The notes under the pieces: generated by a model | What the model saw: only the letters and a program-made list of their open reading frames with translations | Told to the model about the DNA's origin: nothing | Database searches by the model: none | Sequence record: NC_135732.1 | DNA length: 64,000 nucleotides | Direction: 5' to 3' (one strand) | Source of the DNA: a phage | Translations under genes and position numbers: made by a program | In this document: positions 1 to 5,523 of the stretch, one piece after another | Layout of the letters: every line of letters begins with the position of its first letter | Numbering within the stretch: position 1 is the first letter of the stretch

Positions 1-12
1 CATCAGCAAAAA

Positions 13-113
13 GGTGCTAGGTGATGGAATCGAACCACCTATGTATTCAACGACTACCTCGTCTATTTTCAGGATTAAAAATCCTCGCCCTTGCCAAAGG
101 GCTTACCTAGCTC
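13..113 (-). tRNA. tRNA-like element, atypical (about 99 nt); possible degenerate or insert-containing tRNA
   Basis: Minus-strand read: 7-bp acceptor stem GCTAGGT/ACCTAGC, D-arm GCCC-loop-GGGC, canonical T-arm GGTGG-TTCGATT-CCATC. No clean anticodon arm; best guess loop UUUUUAA (anticodon UUU) followed by a ~30-nt extra region. Confidence 0.35.
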
Positions 114-209: not shown

Positions 210-300
210 TGGCTGAGGGTAATGGAATCGAACCATCATCAAGTCATCCTCAACGGGACGGTTTTCAAGACCGCTTGAGCACCATTGCTCCCTACCCTCA
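210..300 (-). tRNA. tRNA-Ser (anticodon UGA), long variable arm, CCA encoded
   Basis: Hand-folded on minus strand: acceptor TGAGGGT/ACCCTCA, anticodon loop CTTGAAA, T-arm GATGG-TTCGATT-CCATT, 3' CCA at 210-212. Confidence 0.75.
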
Positions 301-414: not shown

Positions 415-501
415 TGGTGGGGAGTGGTGGAGTCGAACCACCCGAGTCGCAATGACAATAGATTTACAGTCTACACCGCTACCCCTACGGGATAACTCCC
501 C
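415..501 (-). tRNA. tRNA-Tyr (anticodon GUA), long variable arm, CCA encoded
   Basis: Acceptor GGGGAGT/ACTCCCC, anticodon stem GTAGA/TCTAT with loop CTGTAAA, T-arm GGTGG-TTCGACT-CCACC. Confidence 0.75.
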
Positions 502-505
502 AATT

Positions 506-580
506 TGGCACCCCGTACTGGACTCGAACCAGTGTCAACGGCTTAGAAGGCCGCTGCTTTATCCACTAAGCTAACAGGGC
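506..580 (-). tRNA. tRNA-Arg (anticodon UCU), CCA encoded
   Basis: Acceptor GCCCTGT/ACGGGGT (with G:U pairs), D-stem GCTT/AAGC, anticodon stem GCGGC/GCCGT with loop CTTCTAA, T-arm ACTGG-TTCGAGT-CCAGT. Confidence 0.75.
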
Positions 581-676
581 ACGGGGTGGCTTTCTTTTAC
601 ACCTTAGCCGCCAGAAAAGGTGGGAGACCATGTTTACAATATTACACTGTTAAGCAAAGTTTGTCAAGAAAATATT

Positions 677-2456: not shown

Positions 2457-2959
2457 AGCTGCCTCCTCTTCAAGTTATAGAAAAACTCACTGTATCGCTT
2501 TGTAACGAGCTTTTCTATCAAACTGGTGCGATTGCATTACCTGGTATAGTTTATATAGCTGTGGAGCGATTTAGGGGCCTTCTTGTCAGTTTCCACACAT
2601 AAACTTCATCCAAGCTCGCGCGGGAGACTCTCAACCGACTCCTTACGGCGCTGGCAAGCTTTCGTCGGTGGTCCACATCAGTGCTCGGCCTTTGGCCTGC
2701 GCTATCGCTTCGCTCCCACACATGTTAACAGACCTGTATGTATGAACTTCTGTTATTGTGTGCACCAAAGAGGCCCGGCATCTCGCCCCTCGTAGGCGAG
2801 TGCCAATGAAGGGCCGACACTGCCCATAGTAAGTAATAAATTTAAAACATGGTACTTAGGATCTAGTATATTCTACATAAGTTAAGTATATGTACTTAGT
2901 ACCATAAGTACTAGATCTTTTATTTTTTATTATTTAGTTATTTTAGTTATATTCTTTAT

Positions 2960-3042
2960 GTGTCCGTATCACGGACAGTTAGTGTCCGTATTACGGGCAG
3001 ATGTGTCCGCGTGACGGACAGTAGTGTCCGTATCACGGACAG
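2960..3042. repeat. Four tandem copies of a 19-bp palindrome GTGTCCGTATCACGGACAG (period 21-22 bp)
   Basis: Copies at 2960, 2982, 3003 and 3024; each is an inverted repeat GTCCGT..ACGGAC. Lies in an AT-rich intergenic gap between two minus-strand genes. Confidence 0.8.
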
Positions 3043-3514: not shown

Positions 3515-4069
3515 TTACTCCCTGCTGTCAATATCAAAACTCATTGCAATACGGTATGCCTCTTCTAATGGTAAGAGTCTCCCCCACACATCCCAACCGA
3601 CATCAAGCTGCCTGCCAAACAACTGTTGTGTGGTTCCGTGAGCATGACCGAACAGTTGGACTGATCCGTGAGGCTTTCTGTTCCACTTTGCAAACTGGTA
3701 ATGGCTCATACAGATCAAATTCTTGTTGTGGCGAAGCTCGTAATAATCTACAACCTCATGACCGAACTCTTTCATAATTCTGACAGTCGTCCTTGTGTCA
3801 TGGTTGCCACGAACAAGAATAATATGTCCGTTCAACATATTTAGAATATCTGGAAGTAAGTTGTTGATATTCTTATCATTAGTGCACGCAATATCTCCCA
3901 AGTGGAACACAGTGTCTGCAGGTGACACAACAGAGTTCCACTCGGCGATGATTCCCGCATTCATACTGTCAAGATTGTGATCATACTGAGATCTGTGTTT
4001 TTGACATGAATCAAACTCCATGACCCGCTGGTGGAGAAAGTGTGTGTCGCTTGTTACAAAGTATTTCAT
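3515..4069 (-). CDS. calcineurin-like metallophosphoesterase; candidate RNA-end phosphatase (Pnkp-type)
   Basis: Motifs SDTHF, GDIxxxND, GNHD and GHxH. Start set to MKYF at 4069; the track start 4174 overlaps the upstream gene. Confidence 0.7.
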   Translation of the reverse strand: MKYFVTSDTHFLHQRVMEFDSCQKHRSQYDHNLDSMNAGIIAEWNSVVSPADTVFHLGDIACTNDKNINNLLPDILNMLNGHIILVRGNHDTRTTVRIMKEFGHEVVDYYELRHNKNLICMSHYQFAKWNRKPHGSVQLFGHAHGTTQQLFGRQLDVGWDVWGRLLPLEEAYRIAMSFDIDSRE

Positions 4070-4076
4070 ACATTCC

Positions 4077-4487
4077 TCATTTAAGTTTAATGCAGTTTTT
4101 AAGCTGGCGTTCCATACGATCCACAACCTTGTCTGGAACATCATGAATGCTTTTATTACCGTGGCGGTTTTCAACCACGATCACGGTATAACTATACCCA
4201 TGACTGATTGCCATGTCAACATATTCCTGCACATGTTTTTCTTTTGTAAACGTATTACTTACCACGATACGGTCGTATCCCATACGCATCATATCTTCTA
4301 CGTTATCTTTGCACCATTTTGCTGCGAGTGTTACTTTACTTGCATCCCAGTTGTAATTGCCGTCATCGTCATACCAGAACATGTCGTTCTCAAAATGTGG
4401 ATACAGACCCTCTAAAGATAGCGCATTTGCCAGTGTTGATTTGCCAGACCCTGGTAGACCACGCACGATATATAGCATTTTAGACAT
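4077..4487 (-). CDS. P-loop polynucleotide kinase-like protein
   Basis: Walker A YIVRGLPGSGKSTLA resembles the T4 Pnk kinase domain. Start at MSKM (4487) with GGAGGG RBS. Confidence 0.65.
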   Translation of the reverse strand: MSKMLYIVRGLPGSGKSTLANALSLEGLYPHFENDMFWYDDDGNYNWDASKVTLAAKWCKDNVEDMMRMGYDRIVVSNTFTKEKHVQEYVDMAISHGYSYTVIVVENRHGNKSIHDVPDKVVDRMERQLKNCIKLK

Positions 4488-4608
4488 AGTGACCCTCCGT
4501 TTTAATTTCAACGGTAGTATACCTAACTGTTTTGTTAATTTCAAGTGTTGACACTAGGTTATTTGTGTGGCAGGATAGACTGACAAAATGACAAATGAGG
4601 AACGTATA

Positions 4609-5523
4609 ATGAAGTATTTTAATGCAGACGACCTGGTTGACAAAGGTCTTGTAACCAGTAGGTATTACCCAGATCTCGGGTTAAAGATCTATAAATATGC
4701 TAGAAAAGTATTTTACAACAATTTATGGCATTTGTCCCCTCGTTTACTGGAGTGCCGAGGCATTGTTGTAGGTAATGAAGGAAATGTTGTGGCATGGCCC
4801 TTCACAAAAGTGTTTAACTTGGGAGAAAACTCCACCAACCTGCCTGACAATAAGCTTGTGACTGCGGTAGAGAAAAAGAACGGATTCCTTGGTGTGGTAT
4901 CATCTCATAAAGGTGACCTATTGTTCTCAACAACCGGGTCTCTTGATTCTCCATATTGTAACCTTGCAAAGGAAACCATCCAAGAGCAATGTGGTAATTT
5001 AGATCTTATCAAGAAGGTTATGGGCAATGAAAACATGACATTCATGTTTGAAATTTGTCACCCTTCAGATCCGCATATTGTTCAAGAAGACCATGGCGCA
5101 TATTTGATAGGTTGCAGATATAATGATTCTGGAATAATGCTACCAGAAGCAGCTTTAGATGGGATTGCCAAATACCTTGGTGCAAAACGTCCTCACACTG
5201 TGCGTGAAATCCCGTTCAGCTATGCAAAAGAATTAGCCGCAGAAACAAGGGGCGAAGGGTATATGATCCGTAAGCCTTACTACCCTTATGACCTGCAGCT
5301 GAAGATCAAGTCTCCATACTACCTGGCACGGAAGGCCGTAATGAGGGGTAAAGCTTGGAAGATTTGGGATGATGATATCTTTAAACGTGTTGACGAAGAG
5401 TTTTACGGCATGGTAAACTTCATTCGTAACAATTACACAGAAGATGTGTGGAACTGCCTCCTGGAGCAGGAACGCCGTGAGATACTTGATTACTATTTCC
5501 ACAACGAGAACTATATGCAATGA
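4609..5523 (+). CDS. RNA ligase, Rnl1 family (T4 RnlA-like)
   Basis: Recalled similarity to T4 Rnl1: LECRGIVV, KVFNLGEN, and nucleotidyltransferase motif I KKNGF (Lys ~96). Start may be 4588 or 4609 (GAGGAA RBS). Confidence 0.8.
   Translation: MKYFNADDLVDKGLVTSRYYPDLGLKIYKYARKVFYNNLWHLSPRLLECRGIVVGNEGNVVAWPFTKVFNLGENSTNLPDNKLVTAVEKKNGFLGVVSSHKGDLLFSTTGSLDSPYCNLAKETIQEQCGNLDLIKKVMGNENMTFMFEICHPSDPHIVQEDHGAYLIGCRYNDSGIMLPEAALDGIAKYLGAKRPHTVREIPFSYAKELAAETRGEGYMIRKPYYPYDLQLKIKSPYYLARKAVMRGKAWKIWDDDIFKRVDEEFYGMVNFIRNNYTEDVWNCLLEQERREILDYYFHNENYMQ

Follow-up and report, generated by a model that had tools for sequence, protein, structure and literature searches.

The tRNA clusters of phages are now being reinterpreted as counter-defense loci, because many bacterial immune effectors cut tRNAs; PrrC is among the enterobacterial defense nucleases that hit tRNA-Lys. 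The classic precedent for RNAs other than tRNAs in such clusters is provided by the species 1 and 2 RNAs of phage T4 (rnaC and rnaD, 139 and 119 nt), small stable RNAs, one of which, rnaC, ends in a hairpin that resembles a T arm. The tRNA-Other of Bacillus cereus and the staphylococcal non-proteinogenic tRNA-Gly are tRNA-shaped and chargeable and are used outside ribosomal decoding. The allo-tRNAs found in genomes of Acidobacteria, Clostridia, and Proteobacteria (Mukai et al. 2017, PMC5389517) have long variable arms, and some of them, which are apparently unused in translation, have been proposed to be regulatory RNAs (PMC5389517). B. cereus tRNA-Other has been cited as a tRNA-like small RNA (PMC5389517). 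In phage T5, a tRNA-Lys from the phage tRNA cluster deviates from that of the host at nuclease recognition sites in its anticodon arm; PARIS AriB recognizes U36AAUC|A41 in tRNA-Lys (PMC12409363), and a bacterial Schlafen also cuts tRNA-Lys (PMC13056530).

We analyzed a tRNA-shaped element that, like T4 rnaC and rnaD and T5 tRNA-Lys, lies within a phage tRNA cluster. Comparison of its homologues leads us, on balance, to lean toward the view that this gene is functional and specifies a small tRNA-shaped RNA, which would be processed and stable and would serve as a tRNA mimic that does not decode.

Results

Position of the element in the tRNA cluster

The window, the whole 64,000-nt stretch of DNA that was analyzed, belongs to an rV5-like coliphage and is ~99.8% identical to Escherichia phage pangalan (Vequintavirus). 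The features of the cluster in the window were as follows.

1 to 7, minus strand: first 7 nt of tRNA-Thr(UGU), the remainder of which lies beyond the window; it starts 5 nt past the CC of the element
15 to 111, minus strand: the whole tRNA-shaped element, 97 nt, with G1 at 111 and discriminator A73 at 15 (ARAGORN; Rfam tRNA model, 35.5 bits; covariance model R1, 104.6 bits, E 2.5e-24)
210 to 300, minus strand: tRNA-Ser(UGA) (ARAGORN)
415 to 501, minus strand: tRNA-Tyr(GUA) (ARAGORN)
506 to 580, minus strand: tRNA-Arg(UCU), the first gene of the cluster (ARAGORN and Rfam)
639 to 667, minus strand: promoter-like site, TTGACA-17-TAATAT, upstream of tRNA-Arg, a consensus match only (3667-3639 in L001)

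The promoter-like site could drive the entire tRNA cluster. The original prediction had placed the element at the edge of the cluster. In phage pangalan, however, the gene order is Arg-Tyr-Ser-element-Thr-Met-Pro (seven genes, the element included), which makes the element interior, and positions 7 to 1 of the window are the start of tRNA-Thr; the element seems to lie at an edge because the window boundary cuts the cluster. The span initially assigned to it, 13 to 113 (~99 nt), does contain the element, but the RNA itself runs from 111 (G1) to 15 (A73), with CC at 14 and 13, and positions 112 and 113 are spacer. In most genomes only 1 to 6 nt separate the element from a neighboring tRNA. Each of the six regular tRNA genes in the cluster ends in a complete, encoded CCA.

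The phage also encodes an RNA ligase and a Pnk-like enzyme. A CCA-adding enzyme is encoded by phage Hena1, and none was annotated in the 50-kb stretch of pangalan that was examined. Analysis of co-occurrence established no partner protein for the element.

Predicted fold of the RNA

ARAGORN reported positions 13 to 111 of the window (minus strand) as "tRNA-???" with a four-base "anticodon," atcc, and in a stand-alone run labeled the element "tRNA-?(Asp|Gly)(atcc)." The match of the Rfam tRNA model (RF00005, gathering score 29) to positions 15 to 111 needs a 26-nt insertion in the variable region and one deleted anticodon-stem position. Rfam gave no match to the element beyond the tRNA clan, and the copies from PVP-SE1 and KB57 were unmatched at E ≤ 0.1. 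GenBank records label the element tRNA-OTHER, tRNA-Lys, tRNA-Stop, or tRNA-???, and many records omit it.

The minimum-free-energy fold of positions 13 to 113 (-34 kcal/mol; z = -3.47; none of 200 shuffled sequences folded as well) consists of an acceptor stem, a 6-bp D stem, an anticodon-like hairpin, a small variable hairpin, and a T arm. From the 5' end to the 3' end, its parts are as follows.

105 to 111, minus strand: 5' strand of the acceptor stem, GCUAGGU, pairing with 16 to 22; both sides changed in five of the seven pairs in the family, with 100% of cells paired
103 to 104, minus strand: positions 8 and 9, A and A; A8, in place of the near-universal U8, is found in 27 of 27 variants
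87 to 102, minus strand: D arm, GCCC-UUUGGCAA-GGGC, which holds G18 and G19; pairs 11:24, 12:23, and 13:22 covary
86, minus strand: G26, invariant in the family alignment
71 to 85, minus strand: anticodon-like hairpin, AGGA-UUUUUAA-UCCU, 15 nt with a 4-bp stem
64 to 70, minus strand: G44, then the single-stranded linker on the 5' side, AAAAUA; three of its A's, like G44, do not vary in the family
49 to 63, minus strand: variable-region hairpin, GACGA-GGUAG-UCGUU, with a compensatory change in Av-05 (GACGG/CCGUU)
40 to 48, minus strand: 3' single-stranded linker, GA-AUACAUA; AUACAUA is invariant in the 29 motif-collected variants
23 to 39, minus strand: T arm, GGUGG-UUCGAUU-CCAUC, with a canonical T loop (Rfam tRNA model; covariation)
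16 to 22, minus strand: 3' strand of the acceptor stem, ACCUAGC, pairing with 105 to 111
13 to 15, minus strand: discriminator A73 and C74 C75, followed by U

The perfect 7-bp acceptor stem, the D arm, and the canonical T arm that had first marked the element as tRNA-like are all present in this fold, and the two anomalies described with them are also there: in place of a standard anticodon arm of 17 nt there is a 15-nt hairpin, and the ~30 extra nt form a 30-nt variable region. The 7-bp acceptor stem, the 5-bp T stem, and a T loop with U54, U55, C56, and A58 are those of a canonical tRNA, as is the elbow, in which G18 is invariant and 19:56 is GC in 18 variants and UA in 9, with no mismatches. 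The canonical U8/A14 reverse-Hoogsteen tertiary pair is absent, A8 and U14 being invariant in the family. According to RNAfold and RNAalifold, the D arm is able to form a 6-bp stem (GCCCUU/AAGGGC) with a 4-nt loop (UGGC), but the two U-A pairs that extend the stem never vary, and thus covariation cannot confirm them. A possible fifth pair in the anticodon-like hairpin, U31-A39, would leave the loop UUUUA.

The variable region, which reaches 40 nt in homologues and has unpaired linkers of 6 to 8 nt and 9 to 10 nt, corresponds neither to the 4 to 5 nt of class I tRNAs nor to the hairpin with 0- to 2-nt linkers of class II tRNAs. A hairpin is predicted there in nearly all variants, those of other clades being unrelated and longer, and the linkers AAAA and AUACAUA are nearly invariant across the family. 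The homologue collection was anchored on the ATACATAGG motif and carries the corresponding ascertainment bias; one diverged group, found without that motif, reads AAAUACGAAAU at the position of the AUACAUA linker. At the 3' end, the CCA of the rV5 clade is incomplete because a U comes after C74 C75. Most other clades encode U73-CCA; the encoded A76 has been lost in the rV5 clade, and CCA has been lost altogether in the Av-05 clade.

The anticodon fold that ARAGORN proposed for the window copy, with an AUUUU/AAAAU stem and an 8-nt loop containing atcc, was rejected because UCCAU replaces AUUUU in PVP-SE1-type copies and is unable to pair with AAAAU; it is the AGGA/UCCU stem that covaries. Complementarity in PVP-SE1, GAP31, and KB57 (UCCA:UGGA) and in 4MG (GCCA:UGGC) suggested a kissing contact of the anticodon-like loop with that of the variable hairpin, but this idea was dropped because, by inspection, the complementarity is absent in FENT2, AV124, L028, and L035.

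Distribution of the family

GenBank phage records were matched by an rV5-type query (128 records) and by a Seunavirus-type query (181 records), and 30 distinct homologues, comprising 29 variants and one diverged group, were distinguished. The carriers belong to five genera of the Vequintavirinae (Vequintavirus, Avunavirus, Seunavirus, Mydovirus, and Henunavirus); outside the Vequintavirinae, the element was found in the N4-like Schitoviridae phage UTK0002 and in uncultivated viral contigs. When 185,579 bacterial and archaeal genomes were scanned with a motif, no matches were obtained. Covariance model R1 scored members at 80 to 119 bits, with one hit per locus, and ordinary tRNAs at no more than 29 bits. 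Judged from these comparisons, the family is discrete and restricted to phages, and it has moved between unrelated phage families.

Comparison of the acceptor and T halves with 269 phage tRNAs revealed no clear parent isotype; the nearest, which shared ~20 of 25 positions, were the tRNAs for Thr, Ser(UGA), Cys, and Tyr. Within this set of 269, U73 was present in the tRNAs for Cys and Gly and in part of those for Ser(UGA), with single cases in Ala, Met, and Thr. Searches of the literature on rV5, the Vequintavirinae, Hena1, and tRNA-like RNAs of phages yielded no description of the element, which is also absent from the rV5 genome paper and has no matching Rfam family.

Conservation of the element

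Standard pairs were present in 594 of 594 cells for the 22 proposed pairs in the 27 aligned variants, and RNAalifold independently arrived at this fold. Both sides had changed in 11 of the 22 pairs, including the tertiary elbow pair (G19:C56 to U19:A56), and compensatory changes were seen in every helix, with covariation at 50:64 and 51:63 in the 5-bp T stem. The covariation score was 0.421, compared with 0.169 for shuffled alignments (0 of 500 reached 0.421) and no more than 0.10 for slid controls. Within Vequintavirus, considering full-length loci only, 5 of the 97 columns of the element were variable, compared with 25 of 98 in the adjacent spacer, 13 of 91 in tRNA-Ser, and 14 of 87 in tRNA-Tyr; the figure for tRNA-Arg was not used owing to ragged alignment ends.

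These results bear on the earlier suggestion that the element is a decaying tRNA. Such a pseudogene might derive from a former class II tRNA such as Ser or Leu. Complete pairing with compensatory changes throughout five Vequintavirinae genera and a Schitoviridae phage, and variation lower than in the adjoining bona fide tRNA genes, argue against decay, and the non-canonical anticodon arm, which might otherwise be taken as a sign of it, is among the unusual features that are themselves conserved. Other signs that could be taken to favor decay are the 3' end, where the incomplete CCA of the rV5 clade and the missing CCA of the Av-05 clade could reflect relaxed constraint, the omission of the element by many annotators, and phage V18, in which the 5' half of the element has been deleted. 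V18 is apparently a viable isolate, so that loss of the RNA seems to be tolerated, at least under laboratory conditions. Taken as a whole, the comparative data largely refute a decaying pseudogene, which we regard as very improbable.

Insert-containing tRNA and tmRNA

It had also been proposed that the element is a tRNA containing an insert, in which case removal of a small intron or insert would give a normal tRNA. ARAGORN in intron mode did call a tRNA-Gln(ttg) with a 5-nt intron in the window, but the calls among the homologues were inconsistent: isotype (Gln, Thr, Leu, Phe, Met, Ile, Asp, or Val) and intron size (5 to 28 nt) varied for almost every one, and 13 of 29 received no call. The RNA is ~25 to 35 nt longer than a class I tRNA, and the ligase and Pnk-like enzyme of the phage could in principle reseal a cut RNA. 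To our knowledge, however, the tRNA introns of bacteria and phages belong to group I, exceed 200 nt, and interrupt the anticodon loop, whereas the extra sequence of the element sits in the variable region, and its removal would leave the arm of 14 to 16 nt rather than a canonical anticodon arm. An interrupted tRNA is extremely improbable.

In tmRNA mode, ARAGORN found no tmRNA in the window or in 29 homologues. A tmRNA was further ruled out by the 3:70 pair, which is U-A, C-G, or A-U and not G3:U70, and by a length of 97 nt, which is too short for a tag open reading frame.

Comparison with noncanonical tRNAs and tRNA-like RNAs

The family resembles the allo-tRNAs in its long variable arm, in a predicted long D stem with a tetraloop like that of tRNA-Sec, in a discriminator of U73 (U73 or G73 in allo-tRNAs; A73 in the window copy), and in its highly diverse "anticodons," among which UAU, predominant in allo-tRNAs, is found in Av-05. 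The allo-tRNAs differ in having an 8/4 or 9/3 acceptor/T branch, compared with 7/5 in the family, where 8/4 would need an A8-C65 pair, and in having longer anticodon stems, whereas the arm of the element is shorter than canonical. Unlike the allo-tRNAs, the family has long conserved single-stranded linkers around its variable hairpin, and it occurs in lytic enterobacterial phages rather than in bacterial genomes.

A 6-bp D stem with a 4-nt loop is possible in both the element and bacterial tRNA-Sec (RF01852), and both have a long variable region. The loop of E. coli tRNA-Sec, which we take to be CUUCAAA, differs from the CAUCAAA loop of Hena1 and UTK0002 at position 33 only. The tRNA-Sec model scored the Av-05, Hena1, and UTK0002 copies at 29.4 to 39.1 bits, below the gathering threshold of 47 and best for the Hena1/UTK0002 type (39 bits), and the PVP-SE1 and KB57 copies were unreported at E ≤ 0.1. 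However, tRNA-Sec has an 8/5 branch, compared with 7/5 in the element, in which A8 is unable to pair with the base after the T stem. It also has G73 and UCA, whereas the family has U73 or A73 (UUU with A73 in the window copy; UCA in the Hena type, but with A33 and U73) and an anticodon stem of 4 to 5 bp.

No homology to T4 rnaC or rnaD was detected with model R1, filters off (8.3 bits or less), and the architecture of those RNAs is unlike that of the element. B. cereus tRNA-Other and the staphylococcal tRNA-Gly are chromosomal rather than phage borne and have no sequence relationship to the element; on unsystematic inspection, the phage revealed no transferase dependent on aminoacyl-tRNA. The element falls outside the definitions of a canonical tRNA, tRNA-Sec, allo-tRNA, tmRNA, and intron-containing tRNA.

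Anticodon-like loop and possible decoding

The anticodon-like arm was 14 to 16 nt long in 29 of 29 variants, none of which had the canonical 5-bp stem and 7-nt loop; the fourth pair of its stem was CG in 9, UA in 12, GC in 1, and AU in 7. The loops, of 5 to 8 nt, were clade specific (UUUUUAA, which is tRNA-Lys-like, in the window and CAUCCA or CAUCAAA elsewhere), with A, C, or U at position 33 depending on the clade. CAUCCA and AUCAA were each retained across lineages with diverged stems and variable hairpins, and therefore the loop sequence matters.

It is conceivable that the RNA, although non-canonical, is a tRNA active in translation. The rV5 clade would then have a tRNA-Lys(UUU) whose anticodon stem is 4 bp and whose variable arm is giant; it would supply or replace the host tRNA-Lys and might be a nuclease-resistant substitute. 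The RNA of other clades would be an opal suppressor (UCA) or a tRNA of Gly or frameshifting type (8-nt loop, CC-AUCC-AG). Numbered U32 U33 U34 U35 U36 A37 A38 and combined with A73, the rV5 loop offers exactly what a Lys decoder would need and what we take to be the identity set of E. coli LysRS. Ordinary tRNA-Lys is absent from rV5-like phages and present in Hena1 and in two uncultivated contigs with the ancestral loop type. Annotators using tRNAscan-SE have named the element tRNA-Lys or tRNA-Stop(tta), and the Hena1 copy sup(tca). Nevertheless, U33 is not conserved, the most widespread type having A at this position, and the short arm without a 5-bp stem and 7-nt loop is common to all variants. 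The loops of Seunavirus and Mydovirus phages differ only at two positions 5' of an invariant CCA (CAUCCA, CAGCCA, CUUCCA, and CCUCCA) and, with U73, G1:C72, and C2:G71, presumably provide most of the E. coli GlyRS identity set, but these phages already carry a normal tRNA-Gly(UCC). An opal-suppressor reading of the Hena1/UTK0002 type was disfavored: the loop has A33, and TGA ends 29 of the 72 long open reading frames of Hena1 (40%), so that efficient opal suppression would be harmful.

The implied "anticodons" vary among sister clades (UUU, UAU, UCC/GCC, and UCA) while the remaining RNA is conserved, which is hard to reconcile with one decoding function, and nothing comparable to the variable region of 30 to 40 nt, with its long unpaired linkers, exists in known tRNAs for Lys or Gly. 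There are documented cases of phage tRNAs that evade defense nucleases through changes in the anticodon arm (PMC10264068; PMC12409363). All in all, a translationally active tRNA seems unlikely as a general explanation for the family, and the RNA may have a weak or specialized decoding role in the rV5 clade.

Possible relation to tRNA-Lys and defense nucleases

At the AriB-type site the element carries UAAUC|C, and the corresponding A41C change is also that of T5 "Mut2" (PMC12409363). An anti-PARIS function received partial support only and is weakened because the adjacent rV5 tRNA-Thr(UGU) retains an intact UAAUCA site. Moreover, the T5 tRNAs are otherwise canonical aminoacylated decoders, whereas the element is structurally non-canonical and is tRNA-Lys-like in the rV5 clade only. 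The ancestral loops (CAUCCA and CAUCAAA) are unlike tRNA-Lys, and thus a Lys-related role cannot be the original function of the family.

Possible role in cis

The element might also act in cis, as a tRNA-shaped module that guides RNase P or 3'-end cuts in the maturation of adjacent tRNAs or that attenuates transcription, with the released RNA having no role. Its close spacing to a neighboring tRNA in most genomes is compatible with such guidance, but neighboring tRNAs are already RNase P substrates, which makes a helper unnecessary. With regard to attenuation, a strong helix at the 3' end runs into UUUUU in the rV5 clade, and a scan flagged this arrangement as terminator-like, but the U-run is limited to this clade. 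The conserved loop sequence and single-stranded linkers and the covarying 19:56 elbow suggest that what is selected is the RNA as a folded molecule and not a cleavage site. A cis-acting element is considered improbable.

Discussion

The original prediction left three options for the element, and whereas a decaying tRNA and an insert-containing tRNA are not borne out, another small stable RNA is favored, in the form of a tRNA-like RNA family of its own. The family retains the L-shape and acceptor end of a tRNA (7-bp acceptor stem, 5-bp T stem, T loop, G18, 19:56, and U73-CCA in most clades). It departs from normal tRNA in a D stem extendable to 6 bp with A8/U14, in the anticodon arm of 14 to 16 nt, and in a variable region of 30 to 40 nt with a replaceable hairpin between conserved A-rich linkers.

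If the element is a tRNA mimic, as we suggest, it would be cotranscribed with the neighboring tRNAs, excised by RNase P and the 3' trimming and CCA-repair pathway, and accumulated as a stable RNA. Rather than serving as an ordinary ribosomal decoder, this RNA would more likely engage tRNA-binding proteins. In the rV5 clade, the loop appears to have become UUUUUAA-UC and the discriminator A73, and the most likely specific guess is that the element competes for, or substitutes toward, factors that recognize tRNA-Lys.

A broader proposal is made tentatively, from sequence comparison. The family may represent a dedicated, horizontally mobile tRNA mimic of lytic enterobacterial phages that does not decode, matures like a tRNA, and acts on the tRNA-binding machinery. 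It might do so as a decoy or competitive inhibitor of tRNA-targeting immune nucleases, with a loop that copies the targeted host tRNA (tRNA-Lys in rV5-like phages), or as a charged aminoacyl donor or sink outside translation. If true, this would constitute an RNA-based strategy of anti-defense or host takeover, and it might also serve as a functional model for the T4 species 1 and 2 RNAs.

The element is thus a strongly conserved member of a phage tRNA cluster that preserves the tRNA fold, including a tertiary pair that covaries, and yet is no textbook decoder. Definition of the family corrects annotations, including spurious "suppressor" and "Lys" calls, and covariance model R1 is now available for finding further members. 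The system is tractable, as E. coli K-12 supports the growth of rV5 and BASEL phages and deletion variants occur in nature, and it offers a practical route to the role of non-decoding tRNA-like RNAs in infection.

The element belongs to a discrete family of phage tRNA-like RNAs

The 97-nt element at window positions 15-111 on the minus strand is a member of a conserved and apparently undescribed family of phage tRNA-like RNAs. Its sequence (window 111-15, minus strand) is GCUAGGU AA GCCC UUUGGCAA GGGC G AGGA UUUUUAA UCCU G AAAAUA GACGA GGUAG UCGUU GA AUACAUA GGUGG UUCGAUU CCAUC ACCUAGC A, in which the final A73 is followed by CC and then a U run. ARAGORN reported 'tRNA-???' with a four-base anticodon. 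The general Rfam tRNA model scored 35.5 bits (gathering score, 29), with an alignment that required a 26-nt insertion in the variable region and the loss of one anticodon-stem position. The thermodynamic fold contained an acceptor stem, a 6-bp D stem, a hairpin at the anticodon position, a small extra hairpin, and a T arm (z-score, -3.47; 0 of 200 shuffles folded equally well). Thus, the original prediction described the structure correctly. The apparent location at the edge of the tRNA cluster was an artefact. Escherichia phage pangalan (Vequintavirus, an rV5-like myovirus), to which the window is 99.8% identical, carries the element within a cluster of seven genes (Arg, Tyr, Ser, element, Thr, Met, Pro), and the window starts seven bases into tRNA-Thr. 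A promoter-like TTGACA-17-TAATAT, which is a consensus match only, is located upstream of tRNA-Arg. In GenBank the identical sequence is labelled tRNA-OTHER, tRNA-Stop(tta), tRNA-Lys(AAA), or tRNA-???(atcc) or is left unannotated. The rV5 genome paper (PMC3606486) reports six tRNAs but says nothing of the element, and literature searches found no description of it.

With the window copy as the query, BLAST matched 128 phage records (near full length in 113). A Seunavirus copy (72% identical to the window copy) matched 181 records, among them Seunavirus, Mydovirus, Henunavirus, and Avunavirus phages of Salmonella, Cronobacter, Klebsiella, Proteus, Enterobacter, and Erwinia. One member is in a phage of a different virus family, the N4-like Schitoviridae phage UTK0002, and the element is present in two virus families. 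Motif scans recovered further copies from IMG/VR and metagenomes, for a total of 29 distinct variants and one more diverged group, the latter recovered with a motif that did not require AUACAUA. The motif used for IMG/VR and metagenomes had no matches in 185,579 bacterial and archaeal species (one genome each); within the limits of motif scans, the family is confined to phages. A covariance model built from 27 variants (R1) scored family members at 80 to 119 bits, one per locus, and ordinary tRNAs of the same loci at ≤29 bits; the family is therefore discrete. The element nearly always has a tRNA 1 to 6 nt away, most often Thr(UGU), Ile/Arg, or Leu(UAA).

Eighteen GenBank records labelled as Campylobacter phages (MG065635, MG065653, and others; C12, C14, A141, etc.) were 99 to 100% identical to the rV5-like coliphage region, which points to mislabelling or contamination in that series of submissions.

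The tRNA-like fold is under selection

Base pairs were counted in a 27-sequence alignment for a cloverleaf that we specified, together with the tertiary 19:56 pair. Standard pairs were found in all 594 cells, and both partners had changed in 11 of the 22 pairs. The covariation score was 0.421, compared to 0.169 in column shuffles (0 of 500 reached 0.421) and ≤0.10 when partners were slid by 1 to 3 columns. RNAalifold, with no structure specified, gave the same fold. At the elbow, the most telling case, 18 sequences have G19:C56 (D-loop UUUGGCAA, T-loop UUCGAUU) and 9 have U19:A56 (D-loop UUUGUCAA, T-loop UUAGAUU), with no mixed cases. MAFFT misaligned the fourth pair of the anticodon-like stem, in which C-G, U-A, G-C, and A-U all occur; pairing in the variable hairpin is kept through changes such as GACGA/UCGUU to GACGG/CCGUU in Av-05. 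Among ten distinct full-length Vequintavirus loci, 5 of 97 columns varied in the element, compared to 25 of 98 in the adjacent spacer, 13 of 91 in tRNA-Ser, and 14 of 87 in tRNA-Tyr. The element is thus under selection for a tRNA-like fold. The suggestion that it is a decaying tRNA is untenable, and a decaying pseudogene was rejected on the basis of the compensatory pairs and the lower variability than in the adjacent tRNAs. It is a conserved, structurally constrained, tRNA-shaped gene within tRNA operons.

Departures from normal tRNA are themselves conserved

The features that distinguish the element from tRNA are also conserved. A8 and U14 take the place of U8 and A14. The D arm is predicted to be extensible to a 6-bp stem and 4-nt loop, the form found in tRNA-Sec and allo-tRNAs, and the two added U-A pairs never vary. 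The anticodon arm is 14 to 16 nt in all 29 variants and 17 nt in none; its stem has 4 bp, with G28 and G29 invariant and a fifth pair optional, and its loop has 5 to 8 nt. The variable region (30 to 40 nt) consists of G44, an A-rich linker, a hairpin, and a linker ending in AUACAUA directly before the T stem. The hairpin is wholly different between clades, with at least five unrelated types, one with the conserved loop GAACUAACAGUA. In the sole group found without AUACAUA the 3' linker is AAAUACGAAAU, and the invariance of the motif is therefore partly due to the search method. Most clades encode U73-CCA; the rV5 clade ends in A73-CC-U, the Av-05 clade lacks CCA, and U-UCA or U-CCC is found in the diverged group. 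All six regular tRNAs of the rV5 cluster encode CCA.

The element failed the defining tests for every known family considered. Canonical tRNA was rejected because the anticodon arm, the 8/14 bases, and the variable region are all wrong; tRNA-Sec because the branch is 7/5 rather than 8/5, G73 is absent, and scores were 29 to 39 bits against a threshold of 47; and allo-tRNA because the branch is neither 8/4 nor 9/3. ARAGORN found no tmRNA in the window or 29 homologues in its tmRNA mode, and its intron calls were inconsistent among homologues; an insert- or intron-containing tRNA was likewise rejected. No homology was found between the family and T4 rnaC/rnaD. The known RNAs that most resemble the element are the allo-tRNAs: they have varied anticodons and a Sec-like D arm, as well as U73 and a long variable arm, all of which are shared with the family, and some of them are reportedly unused in translation. 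The genomic setting is most like that of the T4 species 1 and 2 RNAs, unexplained stable RNAs within a phage tRNA cluster. We group the element with the irregular tRNAs and tRNA mimics.

The anticodon-like loop differs between clades

The loop sequence is clade specific and conserved inside each clade.

Loop sequences, with the triplet obtained when the loop is taken as an anticodon and the base then at position 33
rV5 type: UUUUUAA; UUU; U
Av-05: UUUAUAA; UAU; U
Seunavirus and Mydovirus: C-CAUCCA-G; UCC/GCC; A/U/C
Henunavirus, Schitoviridae phage, and several uncultivated contigs: (C/U/A)-AUCAA-(A/G); UCA; A

In three variants of the CAUCCA type (CAGCCA, CUUCCA, and CCUCCA) only the second and third loop bases are altered. 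The 'anticodon' switches between sister clades while the RNA is conserved, and the arm is never of canonical size, which argues against one conserved decoding function for the family. The copy in phage Hena1 is annotated sup(tca); 29 of 72 long Hena1 open reading frames end in TGA, and an efficient opal suppressor would harm the phage's own proteome. E. coli synthetases recognize tRNA-Lys by A73 with U35 and U36, which the rV5 type matches, and tRNA-Gly by U73, G1:C72, and C2:G71 with C35 and C36, which the PVP-SE1 phage type matches. Because each loop coincides with a synthetase identity set, the element could be charged, and might even decode weakly.

Deletions and neighboring tRNA-like sequences

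Escherichia phage V18 (NC_041937; locus L006:1471-1543) has lost tRNA-Ser and the 5' half of the element through a deletion, which leaves a chimera of tRNA-Tyr (5' part) and the element (3' part) (...GACUGUAAAUCUAUUG joined to GUCGUUGAAUACAUAGG...) with a family-model score of 34 bits. In typing phage 4 (KP869102), the match is likewise limited to the final 39 nt of the query.

Window 210-300, minus strand: tRNA-Ser(UGA), with a U1-A72 start and G73-CCA

The best Rfam model for this tRNA and tRNA-Tyr (415-501) was tRNA-Sec (37.9 and 34.6 bits, both sub-threshold), which simply reflects that both are class II tRNAs; long-arm phage tRNAs are weakly scored by Rfam. Salmonella phage UTK0002 has a class II tRNA immediately upstream of the element (L015:1412-1493) that lacks annotation, ends in ...AAUCUUCC-G-CCA, scores 30 bits with tRNA-Sec, and looks like tRNA-Ser(UGA).

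On metagenome contig JACCDR012020344 (L043:2541-2639) the family member is directly followed by a second odd tRNA-like sequence, in which an acceptor-like stem (GGCGUUU.../...AAACGCC-CCA) accompanies two hairpins resembling T arms (UUGGGUUCGAUUCCCAA and GAAGGUUCGAUUCCUUC); it scored 18 bits with R1 and was not called by ARAGORN. Uncultivated phage contigs with a CAUCAAA or UAUCAAA element carry a CUA-anticodon tRNA (L054:2791-2865 and L044:7862-7934) that ARAGORN labels 'tRNA-Pyl' and that looks like an amber suppressor. The stretch AAAGUGCAUUAGCUCAGAUUAUUUGAUUCACNGACUGAUCAUCUGUG, conserved 3' of the element in Seunavirus and Avunavirus (L004:~2790-2850, L013:~1640-1700, and L005:~1615-1700), resembles a tRNA 5' half, including a D arm and a GAU-containing anticodon arm. 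Neither ARAGORN nor Rfam called a tRNA there, and several hundred bases in this region have no annotated gene; possibly, a tRNA here has been interrupted or has degenerated.

Window ~2958-3042 (pangalan 75425-75509): two overlapping repeat_region features of the pangalan record, an apparently non-coding stretch

The Rfam rli43 match overlapping this area (window 2779-3000; E, 0.19; 18.5 bits; threshold, 100) is most likely due to chance.

Possible role of the element

The element would be cotranscribed with the cluster, matured at its 5' end by RNase P, trimmed at its 3' end with repair of CCA, and accumulated as a stable RNA. On balance, we lean toward tRNA mimicry over decoding as its role.

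tRNA-Lys is a target of the defence nuclease PrrC. It is also targeted by a bacterial Schlafen (PMC13056530), and AriB, the nuclease of the PARIS defence system, recognizes U36AAUC|A41 in tRNA-Lys, with A41C inhibiting cleavage (PMC12409363). The corresponding stretch of the element is UAAUC|C. The rV5-like phages have no ordinary tRNA-Lys but, 3.5 to 5.5 kb away, have genes for an RNA ligase, a Pnk-like protein, and a phosphoesterase.

Window ~3515-5520 (6515-8520 in L001, the pangalan stretch): tRNA-repair-type gene set of a putative phosphoesterase, an NTP-hydrolase/polynucleotide-kinase-like gene, and an Rnl1-like RNA ligase

Two Sir2-like genes follow this set, and Hena1 additionally has a tRNA nucleotidyltransferase gene (L058 12590-13855).

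Because of the UAAUC|C sequence, the nucleases that target tRNA-Lys, the missing ordinary tRNA-Lys, and the repair-type genes, the most concrete hypothesis for the window's copy, though a weak one, is that it may serve as a competitor, decoy, or substitute in tRNA-Lys-directed conflicts. However, an AriB-type site is intact in the adjacent tRNA-Thr, the ancestral loops are unrelated to tRNA-Lys, and V18 is an apparently viable isolate that has lost half of the element.
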